64,000 bases of DNA from Pelagomonas calceolata. Lineage: Eukaryota. Shown here piece by piece: positions 7,289-58,657 of this stretch. The stretch is taken from NCBI GenBank assembly GCA_918797485.1, contig CAKKNE010000001.1, positions 5,704,001-5,768,000 on the forward strand, read 5' to 3'. The notes beneath the pieces are model-generated. The model was given only the letters and a program-made list of their open reading frames with translations, searched no databases and was not told the DNA's origin. Made by a program: the position numbers and the translations under genes. The first letter of the stretch is position 1, and every line of letters starts with the position of its first letter.

Positions 7289-9146
7289 ATGCTGAGGCAT
7301 CTCAGCAGGGCGACATTGACGCGAGGTCATGCGTTCGCCACCGGTGCCGCGACGCCGCGCATCGCCATCTGCGGCGCGGGCGTTTCGGGACTGACGCTCG
7401 CCGGCATTCTGTCGAACGGCACGCGCGACGTCCAACTCACGGTCTTCGAACGAGCGCGGCGCGACCGCGACCAGGGCTACGGCCTGGACCTCGACGAGCA
7501 CGGCCAAGAGGCGCTGGTGCGCGCGGGCGTCTACGACCGCTACTGGGACATTTCCTACCCGTATTCCGACACCGCGGTCGGCTACCAGTTCAGCGGCGGC
7601 GAGCCGCTCTTGAACATCTTCTGGCCGAGACTGACGATGAGGCTATTCCCAGAGAGCAGTGCCGCGAGGCCCGAAACGAACCGCGGCGGTCTCCGGGACA
7701 TTTTGCTCGACGCGCTCGCGGCGCGCGGGAACACGGAAGTGCACTACGAGCGCGGTGCCTGGGACTGCCGCCGTCTGCCGCGAGGTCTCGGGCGGCTAGG
7801 TGCGGGCGGCGCCGAGCTCCTCGATCGCGAGGGGAAGACCCTGGGTGAATTTGATCTCGTGATCGACGCGATGGGCCTGCACTCGCCGCTGCGGGATCCT
7901 GTGTGGAAATCAAATTTCGGGCGCATTTCTCAGGATAACCTAACTCACTGCTTGATTTTCACACAGGCGGGATCTGCGCGTCGTCGACTCGGTCGGCAAG
8001 CACTACGTGGGCGAGATGTTGATTCATGGCGTGATCAACGATATTGGAAAAACGTGTCCGTCGGTCGCGCAACGGATGGATCGGTTCGGGACGTGTTTCA
8101 CGCTGGGACGCGGGTACCATGTCACGATGCAGCGTTTCGGCGCGGGCGCCGACGACAAGCGCACGTGCTTGTTTTATCACATCAACCGCCCCGACGGCGA
8201 AGGAGGGGTATTGCGGGAGATGGGCATCGACAAGCCTACCTCCCGTTCCACCGGCATCTTCACGGGCGACAAGCTGCGCGCCGCGAAGGAGTGGATTTTA
8301 CAAGATATGCACGAGTCCTTCGACGAGGTGTGGCGCGACGCGATACGCGGGTTAGAACGAGTCACCGTTCGCGGCAAGTACATGCACGGCGACGATACCA
8401 AGTTACGCGAGGGGCTGACCCTGCCGCTCGTGTGCATCGGCGACGCGCCGCGCAACTGTGGCGTCGGCGGCTGTGTGGAAATCAAAATTTTACGGCGAGT
8501 TCGTGCTGAATCATCGCGTCGTCCTCCACGCCATCGACGCGACGCCTGCTCGATGGCGTGGAGATGCCGGTTCCTCACCGCTCGACCGAGCCAGGACGGC
8601 CGCGCCATCGCCGAGCACCCGAGGCACTGGTTGATTTCCACACAGGTCGGCGGTGGCGGCAACCTGGCCATGCAGGACGCGAACGAGCTCGCGACAATTC
8701 TGGAGGCCGACGACGCCTTCGACGAGGCGACGGGCGCAGTCAATCTCCCACCTCTGCGCGCCGGCGAGGCCATCATGTTCGAGCGCAAGGAAGAGTTCCA
8801 CGTCGAACGGCTGAAGCCTCCCATGAACACGCGCGAGATGGTCGAGGCCCGGGGCCGCGGGCCCTTGTCTCCCCCCGGCGTCCAATAGTAACGATTGCTC
8901 CGCGTCGACGGCGTCGAGCCGACGCGACCACTTCCCCCGCGCAGCGACTGGGAGGATTTCCGCGAGTTTAACCCCTTACCCTCGTGGGTGCCGTTCCCCG
9001 TGGCGCGGTTCGCGGTCAAGCGCTTCGCGGCGCTCACGAAGGCCTGGTACGCGTGGGAGCGCAAGCGCGGCGGCGGCGGCACTTGCAAAGGCAATGCCCC
9101 TATCTACGCGAGCGTCGAGAGGCTACTTGCCGAGCAGAAGAAGTAA
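7289..9146 (+). CDS. FAD-dependent monooxygenase (spliced; introns 7891-7966, 8463-8645 and a probable third ending at 8944)
   Basis: GAGVSGL Rossmann motif, FER, QGYGLDL, DLVIDAMG, and IGDA...GGGGNLAMQDA after splicing. The end is 8888 if the third intron is not real. Confidence 0.8.
7899..7966 (+). mobile_element. Introner element 2 (intron 7891-7966, GC-AG)
   Basis: TIRs ctgtgtggaaatcaa...ttgattttcacacag; perfect TSD gcgggatc. Splicing repairs the frameshift (HSPL-RDLRVVDS). Confidence 0.92.
8471..8645 (+). mobile_element. Introner element 3 (intron 8463-8645, GT-AG)
   Basis: Perfect 15-bp TIR ctgtgtggaaatcaa/ttgatttccacacag; perfect TSD gtcggcgg. Confidence 0.93.
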
Positions 9147-19768: not shown

Positions 19769-21674
19769 TTATGCGTCCGAGTCGAAGCCGCCTGATCCAT
19801 GGAGTTGAAAATCCTTGCTCTCTAATAAGGAAGACGACGCGTCGTCGGCCTTGGACTCGTCCGCGAACGAGCTTCCGCCCATCGATATCCGCGGGCTTCC
19901 CTGCGCGAAGACGTCCATGTCCGAGGCATCGTCGTCCAGCACGTCAGCTAATCGTTCCACCTCCTGCGCGTCGGTCGCCGCTGGCGCCGGCGCGGCCGCG
20001 GCGTCGTCATCCGCATCTAGAATATCCGCTATCGCATCGACCTGCTGCGCGTCGGTCTCCTCGCGGCTCCGTCGCAGCAACGAACCTTCCGCCGACGCCG
20101 ACGGCTGCTCGCTCCGGAGCCGCTCGAGGATGTCCCGCGGCGACGACGCTTCCGCGGCGTCATCGTCGTCGCCATCGTCGTCCAGCGTGTCCGCAAGTGC
20201 GTCGACTTGGGCGTCGACGCTCGGCTCCTCGCGCGGCTCCTCGCGGCTTGGAGCGGGCGGCGCCGCCGCCGGGCGGCTGCCAAGGGCCGACCCGTCCGCC
20301 GAGGATGCCAGCGGCGCGGATCGCGCCGGCCGGCCGCCGAGGACCGCGCCCGCCGGGAGCGACTCGCGGCTCGAGCGCAGGAGGCTGCCTTCGGCGGAGG
20401 CGTCCATCGCCGAAGGTTGCTGCTGCCGCAAGCGATTCAAAATGTCGCGCGGCGACGCGTCAGCCGGCGGATTGGGCGGCGGCGTCGGTGGCGGCGGCGG
20501 CGGCGGCTTGCGCGTCGGCGGCCGGTGCGGCGAGGCGGGCATTTTCGGCGTTGAGAACGAGGGCCCGCCGCCGCCGGGCACGCGCACGCGCTGGGAACGC
20601 GGCGAGCCGGGCTGTTTGCGCAAGCCCCTTGGCGCCTGTGTGGAAATGAAGTTTCGGGCGCCCCGATGGCGTGGAGGATCACGAAGGTCCGCAACCTAAC
20701 CACTGGTTGATTTCCACACAGCTAGTCACCTCGGGCGGCGACACGGGCACAGACTCGGCCTTGACAAGGTTTGCGGGCGGCGGCGGCGCCTCAGACATGC
20801 CCAGACGTTCCCTCATCTCAAGTACCTGCGCCTGCAACATTTCCCTCCTTCGTTGAATGCACCTCTCATCAGTCCGCATGAACTCGCGCACGGCGGACCA
20901 GGCCTTGCGCCAGCCCGCGGCGGCGGCCGCGATCTTCCGCGGCGGCCGCGTCGGCGACTTGAGCGCCTCGACGACGTCCCGGAAGGCCTTTTTCGAGTCC
21001 ACCGGGGGCGGACCAAACAATCTCGTCCGCGCCATCGACGTCTTCTGGGGGTTCGGGTAGGGCCCCGGCCGCCAGGCTGTTTCAGGCTTCCAGTTCAGCG
21101 TCTTTTCGTGCTTTGGTGCTTCTTCGACGAGCACTGCAGAACCTTTCCGGAAGGTGCCCTGCCGGTCGCGCCGTCTCCTCAAAATCGTCTGTTGCACGCG
21201 TTCCAACCGCTTTTCCACAGTCTCCCGGTGCTTCCTTTGCGCTTCCTTCCGGCGCAGGGCGGCCTCGCGCCTCTCTCTAGCGTGCTGCGACGCCAGCTTC
21301 CGGGCCCGGTCCTGCGAGTACCAGGGCATTTTGGTGGGCGCCGCTTCCTCGAACTCAAAGCTATCATCATCATACGTCTGGGGCGTCGGCGCCGCGTGTA
21401 TCACGGGTACGTGCTGCTGCCGCCGCTTGTATTCTAAAACGCGCTTGTGCGCCGCGGCCCGGGCCTTGCGGACGGCCGCCGCGTCGACGACGCGCGGCGG
21501 CGTCGGCGGGCCGCGCTGCGCTTGCGCGCGCTTTTTCGAGAGCTGGCTCGCGTCGAAGGCGCGGTTGTGTGCTCTAAGTTCCTGCTTCCCGTGCCAGGTC
21601 GTGTGGCGCCGCTGCTGCCACCGCGGTTCGACGTCCAGTGGTGCCGGTGGTTTGGGCGGGCCGAGCACGCCCAT
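19769..21674 (-). CDS. Hypothetical low-complexity protein (basic coiled coil, Pro-rich, acidic; intron 20636-20729)
   Basis: Two ORFs join in frame on removing an introner (PPE-APRGLRKQ). Internal duplication of SPRDILxRLR...SAEGSLLR. Confidence 0.7.
20636..20721 (-). mobile_element. Introner element 4 (minus-strand intron 20636-20729)
   Basis: TIRs ctgtgtggaaat...atttccacacag; degenerate TSD gtgactag/gcgccaag on the gene strand. Confidence 0.85.
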
Positions 21675-32211: not shown

Positions 32212-32333
32212 TCAGTCGCGTAAGGTTGCCTCGACGGAGTAGTCCCTAGGGTGCGGGTTGTGTGGGTGAAAAAAACAGTGCACATCGCAATGAGCCACGA
32301 AATGGCTGCCCCGCGACCGAAGCAAGCATTAGT

Positions 32334-35300
32334 ATGACGCGCCGGCAGCTGTTGTGGCTGATGCTCGCGGCGGCGGCGTCGGCGGAGACAATAACCGTGC
32401 GCCTTGGGTACTTTGGGGAAGCACAGCCGTTCCAGGTCGCGTGCGCGCGCGGCTGGTTCGACACCGAAGATGGCGGCGACGATTTCCAAGTCGTCTGCCT
32501 GCCGCAGGCGAGCGGCGGCTTCGCCGTGGCGAAGCTCGACGACGGAGATTTGGATGTGGCGCTGCTCGGCTCGACGCCAGCCGCGACCGGCCTGGCGCGC
32601 GGCGTGGCCATGCATACGTTCTACGTCGCCCACATGAAGGGCACGTCGCAAGGGCTTCTGGTACGACCCGAGATTGGCTCGCCCCTGGATATGAAGGATA
32701 AAACGTTCGGCACACCATATGGCTCGACCGCGCACTACCACATGCTATACACCCGCAAGTTGTTCCCGGAATTCCATTTCGAACTCATCGACTGCAATGC
32801 GGACTGTCCGACTCTATACGCCGCCGGCAGCATCGACGGTGCCTTCGTGTGGGGCGGGGTGATGGAGAGCATGAAAGGGCTGGGCGCAACGATGCTCGCC
32901 CCCGCAAAACTACTCAGCGACTGGGAAAAGGCGACTTTCAACACGATTAGCGTCCGCGACGATTTCGCTGCGGATCATTCCGCCGTCGTCGAGCGCGTCG
33001 CTGGCGTCGTCGCCCGCCTCGACGAGGACTACCTGAATGCCGATCCGACGCGCTGGAATGTCGATGATTCGACCGGCTACCTGGACTCGATAGCGGCTGC
33101 GTACAAATTGTTGCCGGGCGACTCGGCACAGTCGTTAAAGAAAAACCGCACGGCGGCAGCGGACGCCCTGGCGCTATTTGAATTCGTCGACCCGACCGCG
33201 ATGCAAGGCTCGGACTATCTCGGAGGAGGCACCGCCGCGGCTCTGCGCGAGACCGCGGACTTCCTCTATGACATCGGCCGCATCGCTTCTGTCGCGCCAG
33301 CCGAGAGAGATGACGTCGACGCGTTGTACGTAGACACGACGACCGCCCAGTTCCTCGAGGACGGTCTGATTGCCGTGGGCGTCGACGTCCTTGGCGCTGA
33401 CGATGATCTAAACCTCGCGTCAATCCCAACAAGCGCGGACTCGACCTGCTCCGGCACGTTGGATTTGACGGCGGCGACTGGAACGTTGACCGACGGTGCC
33501 GCGACCTCGTACTCGGACAACCTCGCGTGCGAGTGGCGCATCGCATCCAGCGGCGTCGTCGAGCTAAGCTTCGACGCGTTCCGGGTCTGGGCGGGGGATT
33601 TCGTCGAAGTATACGACGCCAGCAACGACCTCGTCGCGAAGCTCCACGGCTTCGACCCCACCTTGCCGCCGCTGCGTACAAACGGCGAGATGCGGGTGAA
33701 ATTCACTACGGACGGTGTTACGGAGCGCGCGTTAAACGAGTTGACTGACGGCTGGAGCGCTTCCTACGACGCGGCAGCTTTGGCATGTGCCGCCGACCAC
33801 TCGACCTGCGGCAATGGAAAGTGTGACACCGTCTCGGGCTTGTGCATCTGCGACGCGGGATACGGCGGCGCCGACTGCTCTCTCGCATCCTGCCTCGGCA
33901 CGATGACGTCGAGCTCACAGTCGGGCGAATTCCGCTCGTCGCCGACGGCGCCCGACAGCACCGCTCCGTACCCGAACGGGGCCGAGTGCCACTTTGTCGC
34001 AGAAGTCGAGACCAATTACGTCTCATTCACCATCACGTACGATGTGGAGCCGACCTTTGACTTCGTCACGGTGAAGAGCGGCGACAAGATCTGGGCGCAC
34101 CTCTCCGGCGAAGACACGGCCACGATCCTGGTGCCGACGACGGACGGCAAGGCCGAGCTAGTATTTGAATCAGATGATAAGGGACGGCGCGGCGGGTTTC
34201 GTGCGACCTACGTGGGGACTGACAACGGCTGCGGCGAAGACGGCCTCTGCGGTGGCCACGGGACGTGCGAAGGCGGAACCTGCGTCTGCTCCGACGGCTA
34301 CGGCGGGCTCTCCTGTACCGTGCCGCACTGCCTTCATCAGGCGCTGACTCTCGCGGATGGCGCGAAGATGATCTCCCAGGCGCCCGGCGAGCCATTGCCC
34401 CCGGAGGCGGAGTGCGCTTGGTCATTTGAGGCCAACGCGGGCGAAACTATCCGCGTTGTCGTGGAGACACTAAACCTCGAGGCGTACGATGGTTTAAAAG
34501 GCGACCGTGTACTCATTCGAACCGCCGGAAACGATACTAACGTACAAATCCAAGCCGAGGCGACCTACGAAATATCGAGTTCCAGCGTCAGCCTTACCCT
34601 CGAAACAGACAAGAACGACGCCGGCGCGACGTACGACGGCTTCTCGGCGACCGCATACTCCGTCGCGGCGTGTCCCGTTGCTGACGGGGACTGCGAGGAC
34701 GAGGGCTTCACGTGCGAGGACGGCTACTGCTACGACCTGAGCGGCGGTTCGAAGCGCGCGAGCGGCTGCACGTGCGCGGGGTGCGACGTGGGATCCTACC
34801 TCGACGACGCGACCGGCGGCTGCGAGGCCTGTCCCGCCGGAACGTACCAGCCCCAGGCCAAGAACACGGTCGGCGTGAGCTCGTGCATCGCGTGCTCGGC
34901 GGGCATGGACGCGCCCGAGCCGGGCTCGGCGCTGTGCTGCTCGGAGGATTACGTTCTCGTAGGTCAGAAGTGCGCGAAGTGCGGCACGGACGACGGGGAC
35001 TACAAGCTCACCGGCACGAAGTGCGATACGCCGGAGACGCGCACGGTGGCGACGCTCGAGATCGAGAAGGGCTTCTTCCGCTTCAGCCCCGAGGCGACGG
35101 TCGTCTACCCGTGCCCGGAGAAGGACGACGCCTGCGGGGGGTGGGACCCCTCGAAACTCGTCGACTCCGAGGACGAGTACTACGGCGACCGCTTCTGCCG
35201 CGACAACGCAGAAGGGCCGCTCTGCTTACATTGCAAGAAGGGCTCCTTCCGCTCGAAGGGCGACAAATCCGAGTGCAAAAGCTGCGACAGTCACGGACAA

Positions 35301-38275
35301 CTCGCGCTCCAGCTCGTCGCGACCGTCGTCCTCATCGCCGCGTGGTTCGCCGTGCTTTTCGGCGTCAAGGCCCTGCGGACGCGCTTCCACCGCGACTGGT
35401 TCGAAGCCGTGGCGATCCAGTTCGTGTTCTTCTTCGTGACGATGAGCCGCTTTGTTGGGATTCACCAGATCACGCTGCCGGACCCGCTCTTTAAGTACAT
35501 GTGGGCGCTCGATTTTATTTCCCTGGACCTAACATCAATCCAAAGTGTCCTGAGGTGCGGCTCCAAGGTCACGTACTTTGACTTCTTGTTGTTCTGGACC
35601 CTGCTCGCGCCGGCGCTGGTCGTAGTCGTGGTGGTGTTCGCGATCCTCCGGGGCCTCGTGACGGTGTACGTGCGCGGGCCGGGGGTGGAGGAGGCGGGGG
35701 CGCCGCCCGACCCGGCCACCGACAGCCGCCGCGGCGAGGCGCGCTTCGTGTCGGACCGCGAACTCGAGGACGAGGAGCAGCTGCCGCAAGTCCAGCGCCT
35801 CGCGCTGAGCGTCCAGCGCGACCTCGACGCGGGGCTCATGGTCGTCTTCGCCGTGCTCACGATGTTCCACAGTGGCATCTGCAGCACCATCTTCAACACC
35901 TTCAACTGCTCTATCAACTACAAGATCGCCGACGGTCAAGGCAGCAGCGGCCTCCGATATCTCGCGGCGGATTATACTATTAGCTGCAGTACGAAGTACG
36001 TAAAGCGGCCGCGCGCGCCGGTGGAGTACGACGCCTACTACGACGCGGACTCGGCCGCCGAGCACGCGTTCTACGAGACGTACGCCACCGTCGCCCTCGT
36101 CGTGTACGCGATCGGCGTGCCGCTGACCTACGTCGCCTGGATGCTGCGCGCGCGGCGCCTCGCGCGCGACGAGCAGCGTCCCGTGGACGACGGCGCGCTC
36201 GCGTTCCTGACGCGCTCCGTGAAGCCCGAATTCTGGTGGTTCGAGGTCGCGGCGCTCGTCGCGCGCAGCCTCGTGACGGGCATGTTCCTCTTCGTGAGCC
36301 CGGGCGTCTCGCTGATCATGTCCTTTTTCGTCATCGTCGTGCACCGCACGCTAGTCTTGCAGTTCCGGCCCTACGCCTCGACGGGTCTCCAGCTCGTCGT
36401 CGAGGCGCTGATGCGGGCGACGTTCTCGATCGCGCTCGTGGCCGTGGCCGTCTACGGCAGCGACCCCATCCTAGACAGCACGACGGCTTCTGTCGTGGCA
36501 ATCCTCGTGTTTGCCCTCAACTTGAGTGTCCTGCCCTTCGCCTACCGGGCGTGGCGGACGGAGTCGTACCGGTCCGTCGCGCGGCGCCTGCGGCGGCGCG
36601 AGCCCGTCGACATCGACGAGGTCGAGGCGCTGCTCGGGGGCGCGCACAAGCAGGACATCGCCGAGGTCGTGCGCAAGTGCGGGCGGCACGCGCTGCGCCA
36701 GGCGTTTGATGGACACCTCGACGACAAGGACTGGGACTACTTCACGCACACAATTTTAAAGCTCGAGGGCGTCTGGACCGAGGACGTCGCCGCCGCGGAC
36801 GTGCTCCAGTGGCACGTCAAGGCGATCCTGTACCGAGCGAAGGCCTACGTCCGCAGCCACCTTCAACTCAAGTTGAACGCGCGCGAGGTCGACGCGTCCG
36901 TCGACGTCGTCGCCGGCCCGCTGCGCAAGAGTTTAGTCGGAGGCGCCTCGCCGGTCGCCGCATATCAAAAGCTCGGCCGGCCGGCCGGCGCGAAGGCGCT
37001 CGAGCAGGTCTACGCCCTGGCGCTGCGGCCCTACTTCTTCCTGGAGCACGAGGAGGGCGCGGTCGTCGGGGGTTTGGTTCGGACGATGTCGGTTCTTGGT
37101 TTAATGCAGGGCGGGCATACCAACTCGAGCCTCCTGGCGAGCATGAGCCGCTCGCAGCTCTCGGCGCGGTCGCTGCTGCGCAACTCCGGCAGCCACTCTT
37201 CTCCCGTTGCGGCCGAGAGCAAGGACGAGAGCCCGTCGAAGGTGGCCGAGCGCTTCAAGCACGCCGCGAAGAAGATTTCCGCGGTAAGTAGAGTTGCGGC
37301 GAAAGAGCGGCCGCGGCACCTCCCGCGGTTCCTGGACTTGGCCCTGGTGGCCCACGACCTCAATCAACGCGCGCAAGCGCGCATCGCGACGGCCGCGCGC
37401 GACATCATGGAGGAAGAAGAGGGCGGCGCGACGTTGGCCAAGCTCGCGTCCTTCGACCTCGGGGACCACCACCAGCCCGCGCTGCGGAGCAAGAGCCTCC
37501 ACGCCTTCAAGGAGGAGGTCGGCGGCGCGGCGCTCGAGGTTGAGTTGGATGCGGCCGTTTGCGTCGAGACGTTGCACGCGCTGGCGACGGCGGCCTTCCC
37601 CGCCTTTCGAGCTGCGCTCGAGAAGCTGTTTCCCCCAGACACGGAGGGCGTCGAATTGGAATGTGACGCGGACTTCGCCGTCAAAGCCCCGGCGCGCATG
37701 CGGGCCAAGGTGGACGAGTATAGAAGAGAAAACGAGACGGTGTGGCCGCGCGCGAAGCGGCTCAGCGACTGCCTCCGCGCGTCCCGGACCGTGTGGAAAT
37801 CAAATTTCGGGCGCCCCACGCCGTCGACGCGATAAGCTAACTCACCGGTTGATTCCCACACAGGTCGGTCGTCACGGCCGACGCGGCGCGCACGGTCGCC
37901 GCCTACGAGGCGCTCTCGGACAGCGGCGCGTTCACGGTCGTTCGCCTGAAGAACAAATTGGCCGAACACGCCAAGCCGTACTGTATGCATGTCAATTTGA
38001 AATTTCAGGCGCCGGGCCTGGCTGCGATGACGGTCGAGGTCCAGATCGTCCCGAAGGCCATCTACAGCGACCAGAAGACGTCGCACAGACTGTACACGGT
38101 CGCGCGCGCCAACAGCTACGCCGCGTACCGGGGCCTGGCCGAGGAGGACAGCGACGACGACGACGACGACGACGCGGACGTCGCGGGCGACGAGGAGGAT
38201 CTGGGGGTTCTGACGCCTACCGACGCGCGGTCGCCCGCCGAGGTGCCGGTCTGGAAGTTCTGGGCGCGCGAGTAA
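32334..38275 (+). CDS. Receptor-like protein: signal peptide, TauA-like solute-binding domain, 3 CUB/2 EGF, Cys-rich repeats, multi-pass TM region, RelA/SpoT-like nucleotidyltransferase (intron 37781-37863; ~1952 aa)
   Basis: TauA-like LGSTP, TPYGSTAHY, GSIDGAFVW and ALRETADFL. CUB YSDNLACEWRI, YPNGAEC and GFRATY. EGF CICDAGYGGADC. TM motifs YLAADY, VYAIGVP and WWFE. C-terminal VKxxxRxxxK, SDCLRA, RLKN, HVN and EVQI. Confidence 0.88.
37789..37863 (+). mobile_element. Introner element 5 (intron 37781-37863, GT-AG)
   Basis: TIRs ccgtgtggaaatcaa...ttgattcccacacag. Internal sequence similar to element 2, TSD decayed. Splicing joins SDCLRA-SVVTADA in frame with the 37958-38275 ORF. Confidence 0.88.
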
Positions 38276-38281
38276 TATAAC

Positions 38282-39004
38282 TTAAAGGATTAGGCCCCCG
38301 ACGCCGCCCGTGAGGACCTTGAGCAGCTCCACCTCGAAGCAGATCGTCGCGCCGCCCGGGATGTTCGGCGGCGAGCCGCCGTCGCCGTAGGCGATGTCGG
38401 CCGGGATCGTGAGCTTCGCCGTGCCGCCCTCCTGCATGAGCTGTAAAGCTTCCTGCCAGCCCTTGATGACCTGCTTGACGGCGAACTGCGCCGGTTCTCC
38501 TCGCGCCCTTGACGAATCGAACACGGTGCCATCAATAAGGGTACCCACGTAGTGCACGGACACCGTCGAGGCCGCCGTCGGGAACGGGCCGACGCCCTCC
38601 TTGACGTGCTCAATCACCAAACCGGACTTGGTCTGCTCCGCGCCCTCGACGGCCGCGGCCGCGGCCACGGCCTCGGCGCCTCTGGCTTTCTCATCATCAA
38701 TAGCCGACGCCATGCGCTGTTGAATTAACTGGTTGATGGCGTTGCCCTGCTCGACGAGGACCGGCTTCGGGTCCACGACCTCCTTACTCAAGTAGGCGGT
38801 GATGCCCTCCACAATTTTGGGGATCTCCTCCTTCTTGAAGAGCGTTCGTATGTCGTTCAGTTGCGTCGCGACGTTGACGCCCAGCGCGAAGAGCGTCTTG
38901 TCGTCCGGCGCGTCGCCCGCGCGCAGTGCGAGGGCTCTCTGCGCAATGGTTTTGGGTGCCGTGAAGGCTCTCACGCATGACAGGAACGCCAGCGAGCGCA
39001 TCAT
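38282..39004 (-). CDS. FKBP-type peptidyl-prolyl isomerase (FkpA/Mip-like N-domain), probably plastid-targeted
   Basis: VHYVGTLIDGTVFDSS, VIKGWQEAL, AYG and IPGGATICFEVELL; N-terminal FALG domain; signal peptide ending VRA-F. Confidence 0.92.
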   Translation of the reverse strand: MMRSLAFLSCVRAFTAPKTIAQRALALRAGDAPDDKTLFALGVNVATQLNDIRTLFKKEEIPKIVEGITAYLSKEVVDPKPVLVEQGNAINQLIQQRMASAIDDEKARGAEAVAAAAAVEGAEQTKSGLVIEHVKEGVGPFPTAASTVSVHYVGTLIDGTVFDSSRARGEPAQFAVKQVIKGWQEALQLMQEGGTAKLTIPADIAYGDGGSPPNIPGGATICFEVELLKVLTGGVGGLIL

Positions 39005-39374
39005 GATGTCTCTCACTTGTCTGTGTGATGTCTTTTGTGGTGTATTTAATGCAGCGTAAATCACTGTATGGATGCAACTGCGTCGGATCCGTGCCGTTTG
39101 CAACAGCTGGCGTGCAGTGGCGTATTTATGTGGCTAAACACGTGCAATTGCGGAACGCCTCGCTCTCACTGCAGTTCAGCTCCAGCTGGCAGCGCGACTC
39201 TTGATCGCCTCAGCCCCAGGCGGATTCGTCGCCGATCCCTGCCATCGGGCGGGAGCGCTCTTTTTCATTTGCGTGCGGGTCGTCAGCCTCTGGACTCATT
39301 CCAAAAACCAAGCCATCATCGAGAAGCCCTAGACCAGAAGCAGTGCGACGACTGCACCCAGAACAAGCCACACA

Positions 39375-41363
39375 ATGGCAGGCATGCTAAGGGCCCGCCG
39401 CCTCGACGGCTACGACGACGACGCCACGGTCGACGGGGCAGCCCTGCTTCATGATGAGAGTGAGAAACCATTGCTGACGTCCATGATGCATCTGGGAAGA
39501 TGGCCGCTCGAGGTCGCGCCGACGGTCTGCGTCCAGCTCTTCGACAAACGGAGGATAAGGTGCTGGCGCGCGGATTCTGTGGAGGGCCTCGCGCCGCGGC
39601 CCGACGGTGAGATAGAAGCGGACGGCGTGATCACGGCCACAAAAATCGAGAAGTCTCGGGTGGACCGCGCCTACTCCGTCTCGGACGTGACATTAACGGT
39701 GGCTGGCGCGGCGCAGCCGTTGAAGCTCTGGCTGCCGCGGCGCGCGTGTTTAAGACGGCGCTGGGAGGCATTACTAAGGAACGACATCTTTTCGCGCTCC
39801 AAGAAGCGCCTGGCGACCGAAGCGCGCGTCGCTGCCGCCGCGGAAGCCTTCGCCACGGGCGGGCCGCCTCCCGGCCACACGCGCCACCGCGACGCGGAGA
39901 GCGGCCGCGAATATGATGTTGATGAAACGGGTGCGACGACCTGGGTCGCCGGTGAAGTGGCCGCGACGCAACCGCCGTCATCGAACGCGTTGGCCCTGGC
40001 CTGGCTCCTGCAACGAGCGTTGGGCGACGAGGTCGACGCCGTCTTTTCGGGTGAGGGCGACGCGCCGGTGCTGCGGGGCGCGCTGGCCGAGATGAAGCGG
40101 TGCCCCCTCGTCCCCGAGGAGGCCGTCGACGCGGGCCTGCAGGAAATCCCGAAGCTGCTGAAGAAGGCCGAGGCCGTGGCCGGGAGTTCCAATGAAGAGG
40201 ACGGCGCGCGGCACCACCTCGTGCAGTTCGTCGCGCGGCCCGTGTTTTATCTGGCGACGCGCGAGGCCGTGGGCGACGACGCGTCGTTGGAAGCGGCGCT
40301 GCGCAAGGCTTGTGGTTCGGCCGCGGACGCGTTATCGAAGGGGAAATTCACAGCTTTAGAAGTGCTGCGGTCCGGCTCGAACGTCGACGAGCTGCCCGAG
40401 GAACTAAGGCATGTGATCGCGGCGGCGCGGCCTTTGTTACTGCGGAGGGTGGGAAGGACCCTCACGCCGCGGACGGACGCCCTGCGCAATTCCCAGAAAG
40501 CGTACGACGCCGTGCCGCGGCACACGCTCGCGACGGCGTTGCGCGCGGGCGTCGTGCCCAACTCGTCGAGCTTCGTGGGCGGGCTGGCGGAGCTCATGGC
40601 GCGGCGGAAACTCACGCGGGGCGGCTCGGAGACGGTCGCGCAGGCTTTGGCGCGCGCGCGGCTCGGGCTGGATAGCTTGCCGGACGACCTCAGGGACACG
40701 CCCGAAAACGAGCTGGGCGACGACCACGCGGCGCAGGTCGAGTTGTACCGAAGACGCGCCGAGGCTTTGGTTGAGGCGTATGGGGACGACGCTTACGCGG
40801 ACTTTGTCTGCAACACGTACCCGGCGCTCTTCGAGCCGCTCGCGTCCATCATCACGGCGTCAGAAGTGAAAGCGGCGGATGCGCTGGACGAGCTTTTTGG
40901 AGCGTGGGGCGACGCGCTGGCCGCGGCCGAGGATCCGATGGTGACGGATAGCGATCGGGCCTTTGTGTGGGACGACTCGGTCGGTACAATACTGGATGCG
41001 CTCGTCGCGGTGGCGCACCGGGCGGCCGAGGCCGACGTGGACACGTGGCGCGCGCTCGGGAATTGGTTGGAGCGGTTCGTGGACCGGCTCCGGCTGGACC
41101 TGGCCGTGGACTTGGAGAACGTGGCCGAGGACACGGCCAAGCTCGCCGCCGCGCACGCGTCGTCGGCGGGGGACTTCGCCGCGCTGGCGGCCTGCGACTG
41201 TCCCGCGCTCGAGGCCGCGCTGCCGGGCTTCGTCGAGGCGCTGCGGCGCGAGTGGGCGGCGCGGGAGCCGTCGGCGGCGCCGCGCGTCGTGGCGGCGCCG
41301 GCGGAGGCGCCCGACAAGCCCTCGAATTTCTTTTCGGGGTTGTTCTCGCGGGGGAAGGGTTAG
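39375..41363 (+). CDS. Hypothetical protein (possible PH-like N-terminus, WW-like motif, helical C-terminus)
   Basis: 662-aa ORF with coding-like composition; PPPG...DAESGREY...TGATTW is WW-like. Confidence 0.7.
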   Translation: MAGMLRARRLDGYDDDATVDGAALLHDESEKPLLTSMMHLGRWPLEVAPTVCVQLFDKRRIRCWRADSVEGLAPRPDGEIEADGVITATKIEKSRVDRAYSVSDVTLTVAGAAQPLKLWLPRRACLRRRWEALLRNDIFSRSKKRLATEARVAAAAEAFATGGPPPGHTRHRDAESGREYDVDETGATTWVAGEVAATQPPSSNALALAWLLQRALGDEVDAVFSGEGDAPVLRGALAEMKRCPLVPEEAVDAGLQEIPKLLKKAEAVAGSSNEEDGARHHLVQFVARPVFYLATREAVGDDASLEAALRKACGSAADALSKGKFTALEVLRSGSNVDELPEELRHVIAAARPLLLRRVGRTLTPRTDALRNSQKAYDAVPRHTLATALRAGVVPNSSSFVGGLAELMARRKLTRGGSETVAQALARARLGLDSLPDDLRDTPENELGDDHAAQVELYRRRAEALVEAYGDDAYADFVCNTYPALFEPLASIITASEVKAADALDELFGAWGDALAAAEDPMVTDSDRAFVWDDSVGTILDALVAVAHRAAEADVDTWRALGNWLERFVDRLRLDLAVDLENVAEDTAKLAAAHASSAGDFAALAACDCPALEAALPGFVEALRREWAAREPSAAPRVVAAPAEAPDKPSNFFSGLFSRGKG

Positions 41364-41696
41364 TATTCACTTCTTGTATTTATTCATTTTTGCTTTCCGC
41401 GGATTTTTGTAATCCTAGTATGTCGATAGGCTTAGCTGATTATTGACACAAATCAAAGTGCGGCACCGGGAACGATTCAAGCACCGCATATCTCGCGGTA
41501 CTCACCGAGCCGTCGTGTCTCGCAGTGGTCGAAGGCCAGTCCGAGCTGCAGCGCAGCCGAGCGTCGCCGCGCCGGGCCCCCGCTGCGCTCTTGGCAGCGT
41601 TTGACCCAGGAGGCTCGTACGCAGCGTTTTGACCGCGCCGCCGGCCGTCGAGCCGCAGGACTGCTCCCCGCAGCCACCGAGTGAACACAAGAAAAG

Positions 41697-44600
41697 ATGA
41701 GCGACTCCGACGACGACGTCGTCTTCATTCCGAACCCGACGGGCAAGGCGCAGCTCCCGCACGCGCGCTGCGCCTGCGAGACGCATATTTTTGTCGCGCC
41801 GCCGGGTGGACAGCTGAGACATCAGGGCACAGCGAAGAACAAGGAGAAGTGCGCCACCTGCTTCTGCTACGTCTGCGACAAGCCGGCGAAAGAGTGTACG
41901 AGCTGGGCCGTTCACTGCGACGCCACGGACAAGGGCCCAAACGCCGCCTACTGGAAGATCCGGCGCAACGAGGTGAAGCGGGGCGGCGCGCCGGCGCCGC
42001 CGAAACAACAAACGCTCGCGCCGCCGAGGCCGCCCTCGTCGTCGTCCTACCAGCCGGACTTCATCCCCGCGAAGCGCTACACGGGCATGCGGCCGGGCTA
42101 CCAGTTCAAGAACTCTTACCGGGGCATGGGCTACTACAAGTCCGCCAGCGCGCCCGCCGCGCGGCCCGCGGCGACGCCGTCGCTCTCTGCCGAGAGGAAG
42201 GCCATGCGCGACGGCCTCGCGGCCTTCGCCGCCGACAACAGCGCGAGGGAGCTCTACGCCGTGACCCGCGACGCGTCTTACCCGTCGAGCGCGATTGGCA
42301 ACGCCCGCTACCTGACCAACGGCGCCTCCGACAGCGCGCTCGACGAGCTGCTCTCCGAGGCCCGCAAGAACGCGACCCTCAAGGCCGCGCGCGTGTCACG
42401 CGCCGGCGGGACGCTCACCAGCCACGGTGTAATTGTGTGGAAGCCGGCATCGACGGCGTCGGGGCGCAGGGTCTACAAGCTCGGCAAGCCGTATAGCCAG
42501 TGGGCCATCCAGGACTTTACCCTGTATTCCGACAAGGGGCCGAAGCTGCCCGTGCCGCCGACGTCGACGGGGCGCCGGGGCAAGGCCTGGCCCACGAAGG
42601 CCCCGCCGGCCCACGTCACGTATCGCTCGACGTACTGCGAGTGCTGCGGCTTTAGTTACCAGGGCCCGCAGTGGGAATGGGACCGCACGAGCCACGCCAA
42701 GGTCTTCGCGTGCGACGTCTGCGGGAGCGCGATGCGCGGGCCCGTGGTCGAGAGCTACGCGGGCAAGGTCGTCGAGGGTCCTGCGGCGGGCAAGGCCGTC
42801 CTCGAGCGCGCGGCCCAAAGTTGCGAGCTGACGCGCTCCTCCCACAAGTCGGACGCCATGTATGTGGTCGCCGAGGCCGAGGGCGAGTACGAGGTCCAAG
42901 GTCTCGGCCGAGGCACGACGGCCGCGGTTCGCGAGAACCGCACCGCGAACTTCGACGCCGCGACGCTCGACCGCTTTAAGGCTAGGAGCGAGCGGATCAT
43001 CTACGAGCAGTGTCTCGGCGACGCAGTCGCCGAGAGCAATCGCGGCGTCACGCTCCAGCAGGCCGGCAACCACCACTCGCAGACGCCGTACTTCTCGAAA
43101 CCTCCTGAGGTCAACGGCGAAAAGGCAAAGATCGTAAAACTACTGGAACACGCGCGCTTCAAGCGGAGCGACGTGGGCATCTGCCTGCTCGAGACGGCGT
43201 TCGTGCCCTCTTCAGGTACTGAAAAGGCGAAAGTCCGAGTCAGCGCCAAGCTCGCCCTCACCTCTGTCATTTTCCGCCCCATGGAGCAGCGCAGTGGCGG
43301 AAGGTACAGAGGTGGCCACTACGAGGACGTGCACGGGCGGCAGAACCTCGCCCGGCATCTGCTGGATAGGTGCGGCTTGGAGAGTGACCCGTACGAGGAG
43401 GCGAATTCTAGACGTAGACGAAGCGCACCGCCGGACGCCGCTTTGACAGCGCGGCAGAAGGCCATCTCGAAGCGCCACTTGAAGGCACCGGGTGCTCGCA
43501 CCGGAAGTGCCATGCTCGCGTCGAGCGCCGGCGCTAATTCAGGTGGCTGGGCCGACACCGACACGTCGCTGCAGGCCATGCTCGAAGGCGTCTGGAACGA
43601 AGCTAGACGCTTAAACTCTGGAGGAAGAGCGTCTGGGTTGCAAGGCGCGATCACTCATTTAGAAAACGTGTGCCACGCCGAGGTCACGCAAAAAATACCC
43701 CAGCTCGAAGTCACGTTGAGGGATTACCAGCGCCAGAGCGTCCAGTTCTGCCTGGACCAGGAAGCGCTGGAAGGTGGCATCGAGTCGCATTTGTTCGCGG
43801 AAGTACCTGGGACGTACGGACCCCCTGATACATTAACAAGAAAGAAGTTGTGGTACTCTCCATTTTTACAGACCTTTTCCGAAAAAGCCCCGGACGGGCC
43901 GAAAGGTGGCATCCTCGCCGAGGAGATGGGTCTGGGCAAAACAATTATTTCTCTGGCTTTGGTGCTGCTGAATCCCGCATTGCCTACCTCAACGTGGGGC
44001 CCGCCGGCGGGCTCCCTGCCGGGCCAGGGCGCGATCAAGACGCGAGCGACCTTGGTCGTGTGCCCCGTGTCTCTCGTGAGCCAGTGGTGCTGACTCCGCG
44101 TCTGTTCCGAACTTTTCCGCATTTCAAGTCGCATCGACGGCGTCGACGTGATGCCGCACCGCCTCGACGCCCTCGACGCGGCCGCATGAGAGTCTGCGCG
44201 CCTCGTGAATGTACAGAGGCAGTTTCGCGACGGTGTCCGTTGCGCACAGGTACGACGAGGCCATGGACAAGACGCGACCGGGTACCTTAAAGGTCTACCA
44301 GTACTACGGCGGCAAGCGCACGACCGACCCGTCCATACTGAAGGATAATGATATTGTCATCACGACCTACCAAGTTTTAGTGAGTGACATGAACGCGCGG
44401 AGCGGCTTCGCGAAGGCGGAGATCGCGAGGAAGGGTCGCGCGAACTACGTGCCGCCTCTGGCCAAGCTAGGCTTCTGGCGCATTATACTAGACGAGTCGC
44501 ACGTCATCAAGGAGGAGAATACGGCCATGGCGAAGGCCGTGCGGATGCTGTCGGCGCACCGAAGGTGGTGCGTCTCGGGGACACCAGCACCATTGTCCTT

Positions 44601-57947: not shown

Positions 57948-58657
57948 CTATGGCGCGGCCTCCAATGCGAGGCGGTGCATCTGCGACCAGCCCATCAAGG
58001 AAGGGTATCGGCCGTCCCGGGCGCGTAGAAAAATCATGAATGCTATATATATACCCATAGACATCGACGCCATCTCCGCGTCCGAGACTTGGCGGATGCG
58101 CGTCGAGTCGAGCGGGCTCAAGAATATATCAGCAATGAACTCGGCGCAGGCCGCTGCGATGGAGTTGAGGAGGAAGCGGTTGTCCCACGCGCCCTGGTCG
58201 CCGTACGCTTGGGCGAGGTTGACCTTGAAGAACTCGAACCCGCCGAACTTGAACGAGCCCTGCAACGCGTACGCTGCCGCCGTCGCGGACATTCCCGTCG
58301 TGAGCGCGCCCGCGCCCTCGCTCGCGATGATTTCACGGGTCGCGCCGAGGAGGCCCTTGCTCCCGAGCTCGGGCACCAATTGCATGCGCGTCTTGACGAA
58401 ATCAATCGGCGTGGCGCCGCCGTGCGTCACCTGTGTGGAAATGAAGCAGTGCGTCGCGTCGAGGACGTGGAGGGTCGACGCGACGATTCCGCACGAGGGC
58501 CGCTCGCCGCTCGGCGCTCGCCGCTCGGAGTCTCGGACGGCGCCGTGATTTCTACACAGCGCGTTACCGAGCAGCAGACGCCGCCGGCCAAGAATCCTTT
58601 GAGATAGTAGTCCGGCGTGTACAGTGAGTAGTCGTAAACCGCGCTTTTGACGGCCAT
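57948..58657 (-). pseudogene. Mitochondrial phosphate carrier (SLC25A3/MIR1-like), 3'-truncated (intron 58431-58567)
   Basis: AGGVCCS-VTHGGATPIDFVKTRMQL, YALQGSFKFGGFEFFK and AEFIADIFLSPL..RIR. Similarity stops early in carrier repeat 2. Confidence 0.7.
58431..58559 (-). mobile_element. Introner element 7 (minus-strand intron 58431-58567)
   Basis: TIRs ctgtgtggaaat...atttctacacag; TSD gtaacgcg/gtgacgca on the gene strand. Confidence 0.88.

Follow-up and report, generated by a model that had tools for sequence, protein, structure and literature searches.

A receptor-like membrane protein of Pelagomonas calceolata with a predicted C-terminal RelA/SpoT-type synthetase domain

The RelA/SpoT homologues (RSHs) of eukaryotes have been catalogued as the plastid RSH1-4, Mesh1 and an unplaced divRel group from fungi, Dictyostelium and diatoms, together with the hydrolase-only divSpo of Aureococcus and Emiliania (excerpts of PMC3153485). 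Algal RSHs are treated as plastidial, with frequent domain gains in RSH4 (PMC6881373, PMC10107265), fungal NLRs use RelA_SpoT as an effector domain (PMC4986451), and the bacterial toxin branch is covered by PMC3482391, PMC10083569 and PMC11782079; these papers, too, are drawn on in excerpt. Here, a 64,000-nucleotide (nt) stretch of the Pelagomonas calceolata genome (the window; assembly GCA_918797485.1, contig CAKKNE010000001.1, positions 5,704,001 to 5,768,000) is analyzed, in which a first-pass annotation had placed a divergent, introner-split RelA/SpoT-like synthetase domain at 37560..38130. The domain (SYNTH) was recovered, its bounds were revised to amino acids (aa) ~1736-1905 (Table 1), and it forms the C-terminal part of a membrane protein of 1,952 aa, not the stand-alone small synthetase to which it had been likened. 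With moderate confidence, this protein is considered to be a receptor whose C-terminal domain, of predicted RelA/SpoT synthetase fold, produces an alarmone in the cytosol.

On the + strand, an open frame of 1,861 codons (32250-37835), has the domain region at its end, and a frame of 140 codons (37853-38275) comes next. Excision of 37781-37863 (83 nt, GT..AG, phase 2) yields a single stop-free coding sequence of 1,952 aa starting at ATG 32334. Splicing of this intron, which had been predicted from the DNA, could clearly be observed: the 37780-37864 joint was covered by 21+9+15+9 = 54 raw stranded polyA reads in all four runs (at most one sample), 53 of them sense, and the identical joint was present in contigs of three of four additional runs (X1, X5 and X15), among them a metatranscriptome and another study of this organism. 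Run X18 gave only a 17-nt loose end, compatible with the spliced form. When alternative in-frame splice pairs were enumerated, no joint for any of them was found in the raw RNA reads. Sense-strand RNA covers every bin of the receptor gene, single spliced contigs span from ~34125 through the SYNTH domain, and read ends accumulate at 38287 in three of the four runs. It is concluded that the 1,952-aa receptor-like gene is expressed as one transcript, and the gene is under purifying selection.

Two further features of the transcript were observed. Sense RNA depth is flat at ~1-10 over 32260-36650 and reaches 40-120 from ~37100 in three of four runs, with a weaker step in X24. This rise across 36650-38287 could reflect 3' bias or an internal start producing a soluble, enzyme-only isoform; in-frame ATGs lie at 37086 and 37104, and no start peak was called at the rise near 36650-37100. 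In addition, ~25 reads from the four runs fall on that part of the intron which is specific to this locus (37837), so that the intron may be retained in some transcripts. Retention would end translation at 37833-37835, directly after the catalytic Asp motif.

The protein combines a predicted signal peptide, a ligand-binding ectodomain, a multi-pass membrane part, a helical linker and the SYNTH domain, which is followed by 47 residues to the protein end. The Pfam NMT1_2 match (E 4.6e-5) scores 23.8 bits, slightly below the cut-off of 24.7, and that of the orthologue P0001 lies above it; the remaining ectodomain was identified by matches to CUB (E 2e-17), Ephrin_rec_like (E 2e-10) and EGF_Teneurin (E 9e-7). 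The number of predicted helices is odd, helices 1, 3, 5, 7 and 9 are each followed by basic residues, and the loop behind helix 4 contains a Cys pair; from these features the topology is predicted to be N-out, C-in, which would place the C-terminus and the enzyme in the cytosol. The iterated linker profile matches 19 family proteins, and the linker accompanies the enzyme even in soluble members with leucine-rich repeats (LRRs). The membrane part and the linker gave no match to a known solved fold; such a non-match does not make the fold new.

The SYNTH domain is placed in the RSH synthetase superfamily by its predicted fold, which matches RSH synthetases in structure, and by its catalytic residues. 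All motifs quoted in the first-pass annotation are real and stand in the spliced reading frame: AVKAPARMRAKV at aa 1782, LSDCLRA/SVV at aa 1810, VVRLKNKL at aa 1841, PYCMHVNL at aa 1854 and VEVQIV at aa 1873. The putative catalytic Asp and Glu are indeed retained and near-invariant in the rows of the family alignment (D1812 in 46/47, E1874 in 42/47), as is Q1876 (40/47), and these residues plus a dozen others of the active site are conserved among members that are ~25-40% identical. Position D+3 is Arg in 47/47 rows and D+5 is Ser or Thr in 45/47. When compared with FaRel2 (R64/K66/S70/K74), the syn1 motif R-x-K-x3-S-x3-K keeps both Lys, and across the family its first Arg is Ala, Pro or Ser and its Ser is Arg. 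The described PY in place of GY is present in the sequence, but the equivalent of syn3 is better taken as H-x-N, corresponding to the Apk-type G-x-N. The spacing of D-x-x-R, K, N and E-x-Q is 3/30/15/14/2, compared with 3/30/15/13/2 in SaEAS. As read from the alignment, the unusual motifs are conserved family traits, and this residue set with its spacing fits the Apk1/SaEAS branch and not Rel. The exact Apk2 signatures RYT, GxN and YH (PMC12226406) are replaced by RA[ST], HxN and ExQ[IFL]. In the structure comparison SaEAS ranked level with RelP/RelQ, and Tas1 ranked below.

The Pfam family RelA_SpoT (PF04607), proposed as a check, gave no match on the window halves, the exon halves or the relatives P0001-3, including the intact domain of P0001; sub-threshold signals of 16.8-18.1 bits (gathering threshold 27) were found in 3 of 40 scanned family hits. 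Therefore, structure was needed for the link to RSHs. In phmmer and profile searches of PDB sequences, too, the link to RSHs was weak or absent, and matches to armadillo repeats were rejected as helical noise. PADLOC gave no match for the SYNTH domain, among the PHROGs a family without a name, phrog_4012, matched 7 of 26 members (best E 6e-5), and the NCBIfam matches (YjbM-type 3/35, XopAD 2/35) were all weak. No phage or viral relatives were found by sequence (tblastn of P0023 against phages; viral contigs scanned with P0004); the fold search matched phage RelA/SpoT and Tas1-like models.

To identify relatives, 1.84 billion representatives were searched by HMMER with the second exon, which gave 68 hits, of which 63 were recovered by a profile built from them. 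The repeat proteins P0009, P0018, P0020, P0030 and P0059, not recovered by the profile, were dropped; P0076 is a short partial match. The near-invariant residues of the family, together with the structural match, place the domain beyond chance. In all 23 family proteins of at least 380 aa, no more than 119 aa lie between the end of the domain and the C-terminus. Fifteen of them, including 9/9 over 1,200 aa, have upstream membrane helices, three are soluble LRR fusions, and five have neither and are maybe fragments. The ectodomains differ: NMT1 and CUB in the protein studied here, Peripla_BP_6 in P0015 and P0066, and unannotated regions in others. In a midpoint-rooted domain tree (40 of 48 rows; 8 under 140 aa omitted), membrane-fused members occur in every lineage, the most distant clade included, except two single-fragment lineages and the LRR branch, which suggests an early origin of the receptor form. 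Among ESM Atlas clusters, the nearest (scores 0.95-0.97) are mostly eukaryotic and unnamed, and the next ones (0.92) carry RelA_SpoT on 17-24% of their members. The family is eukaryotic. RNA contigs of the same organism contain at least one paralogue. The LRR fusions P0042, P0057 and P0073 (LRR, linker and SYNTH), which have an insertion in the loop after RLKNK, are candidate intracellular immune sensors. In the membrane member P0036, a weak PH-domain match (E 0.008) lies between the transmembrane part and SYNTH.

How the protein relates to described RSHs follows from this architecture. As had been stated, a hydrolase domain is missing: Pfam gave zero matches to HD, TGS or ACT domains in the gene and in P0001-3, and a lone HD dipeptide in the linker is unrelated. 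With no HD before and no TGS or ACT after SYNTH, the long RSHs (Rel/SpoT, plastid RSH1-4) are ruled out. The plastid RSH1, RSH2-3 and RSH4 of plants and algas share with this protein a nuclear-encoded eukaryotic RSH synthetase domain, but the latter is membrane-bound, predicted to lie on the cytosol side, and escapes Pfam RelA_SpoT. The class of stand-alone small alarmone synthetases (SAS) is likewise ruled out by the 1,952-aa reading frame on one transcript, although a short isoform is possible; RelP/RelQ (SAS2/SAS1; PDB 6EWZ, 5DED) are ~14% identical, and their D-x4-R, SxH and IR signatures are not kept. Apk1/Tas1, Apk2 and the exported SaEAS (PDB 6OX6, 8VX3) are bacterial and secreted or phage-delivered (PAAR, MuF, Sec signal) and have RYT/GxN/ExQYH, whereas here RA[ST]/HxN/ExQ[IFL] is found in a membrane protein of a eukaryote whose enzyme is predicted to stay within the cell, and an ectodomain, several membrane helices and an internal enzyme stand in place of an export or delivery domain (PAAR, MuF, LXG).

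Of the described cases in which a eukaryotic sensor is joined to an RSH synthetase, the fungal NLR-RelA_SpoT comes closest. According to the excerpts of PMC4986451 and PMC3153485, fungal NLRs and eukaryotic divRel likewise represent sensors and RSH synthetases outside plastids, and the three soluble LRR fusions parallel them closely. The likeness is one of architecture; fungal NLRs reside within the cell and carry the enzyme on the N-terminal side of NACHT/NB-ARC, whereas in the present protein the enzyme comes last, after an ectodomain and a multi-pass part. Full-text literature searches brought up no publication in which an RSH synthetase forms part of a transmembrane receptor; subscription journals and the supplements of RSH surveys lie outside their scope and may list members. 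The architecture of ectodomain, multi-pass membrane part and RSH synthetase was thus found nowhere described in the literature searched.

Receptor adenylyl and guanylyl cyclases and receptor kinases combine a variable ectodomain, a membrane span and a cytosolic second-messenger enzyme. The present protein would follow the same logic, but with an RSH synthetase as the enzyme and a multi-pass membrane domain without a known fold match. In the proposed mechanism, a ligand would bind the extracellular periplasmic-binding/CUB/EGF part, and because a periplasmic-binding domain is present, this ligand is probably a small solute. The signal would be relayed via about nine membrane helices and the conserved linker to the cytosolic domain, which would move pyrophosphate from ATP onto the 3'-OH of a purine nucleotide, so that (p)ppApp, (p)ppGpp or both would act as second messenger. 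The suspicion that the product is not ppGpp agrees with the active-site set, whose resemblance to the Apk1/SaEAS branch tentatively favours (p)ppApp or a mixed A/G product; this seems somewhat likelier than (p)ppGpp alone, which is regarded as doubtful.

Among the alternatives, the one that survives best, itself unlikely, keeps the same receptor and the pyrophosphoryl transfer but has a macromolecule as acceptor (the tRNA 3'-CCA or another RNA end), as in the toxSAS FaRel2 and CapRel, with translation shut-down as output, e.g., in an immune or cell-death response. With regard to a cognate antitoxin of toxSAS, the neighbours of the receptor gene are an FKBP gene and unrelated genes. Next comes the proposal, also given little weight, that SYNTH is a pseudo-enzyme or nucleotide sensor without catalysis, which would control the membrane domain (e.g., a channel) or partner proteins while binding ATP, GTP or an alarmone. 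The family-wide loss of the syn1 Arg, the changed syn3 region and the lack of a Pfam score at cut-off speak for it, as does a TRP-like Pfam match in the transmembrane part of one relative, which is not significant (E 1.4). However, the metal-binding Asp, Glu-x-Gln and the other active-site residues are kept at the divergence given above, and the diatom RSH4 is active despite a Gly substitution in syn1 (excerpt of PMC6881373). R1788, R1843, N1846, K1847, P1854 and H1858, invariant residues specific to this family, are predicted to lie along the acceptor side and have no exact counterpart in any described subfamily. They would also fit an active nucleotidyltransferase with a new product (a cyclic or di-nucleotide, a pApp-like compound, an NAD or CoA 3'-pyrophosphate) as lineage-specific second messenger, which is rather improbable; the motif likeness to the Apk1/SaEAS branch is read here in favour of a purine alarmone.

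In heterokonts, a plastid-targeting signal peptide is followed by an ASAFAP motif with its Phe. A plastid (p)ppGpp synthetase like algal RSH1/RSH4 is highly improbable: all characterised algal RSHs are plastidial in the excerpts of PMC10107265 and PMC6881373 (the latter noting an AF cleavage site) and the signal peptide could be the first half of a bipartite signal, but HD, TGS and ACT domains are missing, Glu and a secreted-type Cys-rich ectodomain follow the likely cleavage site, and about nine transmembrane helices are predicted to put the enzyme on the cytosol side.

The intron that splits the domain is an introner, as had been proposed. Positions 37781-37788 are read as an 8-nt decayed copy of the target site and are the source of the GT donor, and 37789-37863 are a 75-nt element with terminal inverted repeats (TIRs) that carries the AG. 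Five copies with both ends, this one and four others, are present in the window, and the TIRs are common to all. The putative target-site duplication (TSD) matches at 3/8 positions in this copy (4/8 against the empty site of the orthologue), and at 8/8, 8/8 and 6/8 in three sister copies; the fourth has none. Hundreds of RNA reads from other introner copies map onto the core of the element. The syntenic orthologue L002 is uninterrupted at this site and the paralogue L001 likewise lacks the element; the element was inserted without a seam, and its presence is incidental to the protein. In the excerpts of PMC9860276, TIR/TSD introners (type of Fig. 2B), with 8-bp TSDs in Aureococcus, are described. 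They share the TIRs, the AG in the element and seamless splicing, and their 8-bp TSD and the donor co-opted from it would correspond to 37781-37788; unlike these, the present copy is old and short (83 nt) with a putative, decayed TSD. Introner-sized introns have been noted in Pelagomonas (excerpt of PMC9481584). The sister copies end in CT-GTGTGG..CCACAC-AG, so that an acceptor is possible in either orientation.

Downstream, the receptor and FKBP transcripts end ~10 nt apart (38287 and 38297-38298 in RNA). The FKBP gene, the 676-aa reading frame and the following one, which carries GGILAEEMGLGKT and which we take to be the start of a SNF2-like helicase, are found in the same order in the orthologous locus L002.

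Table 1. Coordinates of the receptor gene, its domains and surrounding features (positions in the window)
Feature	Position	Strand	Basis or remark
Exon 1 of the 1,952-aa receptor-like protein	32334..37780	+	Open frame 32250-37835; stranded RNA; orthologue P0001/L002 is one reading frame with the same layout
Predicted signal peptide, aa 1-17	32334..32384	+	Sequence read by eye
Periplasmic-binding-protein-like domain, NMT1 type, predicted ligand sensor	32385..33446	+	Pfam NMT1_2
Ectodomain: three CUB domains, EGF repeats, ephrin-receptor-like Cys-rich repeats	33447..35270	+	Pfam
About nine predicted transmembrane helices, aa 988-1408	35295..36557	+	Hydropathy (9 segments), AF2 helices
Conserved cytoplasmic helical linker domain	36561..37013	+	Iterated profile (including P0042, P0057, P0073)
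RelA/SpoT-type SYNTH domain, aa ~1736-1905, intron-split	37539..38131	+	Structure match and family profile
SYNTH key residues	D1812 (37767), R1815 (37776), E1874 (38036)	+	Also K1784, R1788, K1792, K1845, N1860, Q1876, H1890, Y1893, R1897
Spliced introner	37781..37863	+	Splice joint; inverted ends and 4 sister copies; missing in L002, L001
Exon 2: second half of SYNTH, acidic tail, stop codon	37864..38275	+	Transcript end near 38287
FKBP-type peptidyl-prolyl isomerase with FKBP_N	38282-39133	-	Pfam; convergent with receptor gene; same order in L002
676-aa open reading frame	39333-41363	+	Conserved, syntenic in L002; no significant Pfam match
Open reading frame with Cys-rich N-terminal motifs	41685-44093	+	Syntenic in L002
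Further TIR introner copies	7901-7966, 8473-8645, 20638-20721, about 58431-58557		66-173 nt between ends

Alarmone signalling in plants and algae is described as a chloroplast process. According to excerpts of a 2022 review, neither pGpp nor (p)ppApp had been reported from plants or algae, and in animals no obvious synthetase stands beside the Mesh1 hydrolase (PMC10107265). RSH surveys likely lack the present family because it escapes Pfam. With this family it can be asked directly whether alarmones serve eukaryotes beyond their organelles and whether nutrients, microbes or other external cues call for them; the SYNTH domain, of ~170-240 aa, is open to standard assays. The family may also provide partners for those RSHs of Aureococcus and Emiliania that are orphan hydrolases. 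Marine protists may possess a class of cell-surface receptor alarmone synthetases with interchangeable ligand-binding ectodomains and cytosolic (p)ppApp or (p)ppGpp as messenger, a proposal that is held at slightly less than even weight. If true, eukaryotes would have a counterpart to the receptor cyclases, a signalling system whose enzyme belongs to the bacterial toxin branch and which does not depend on the chloroplast.
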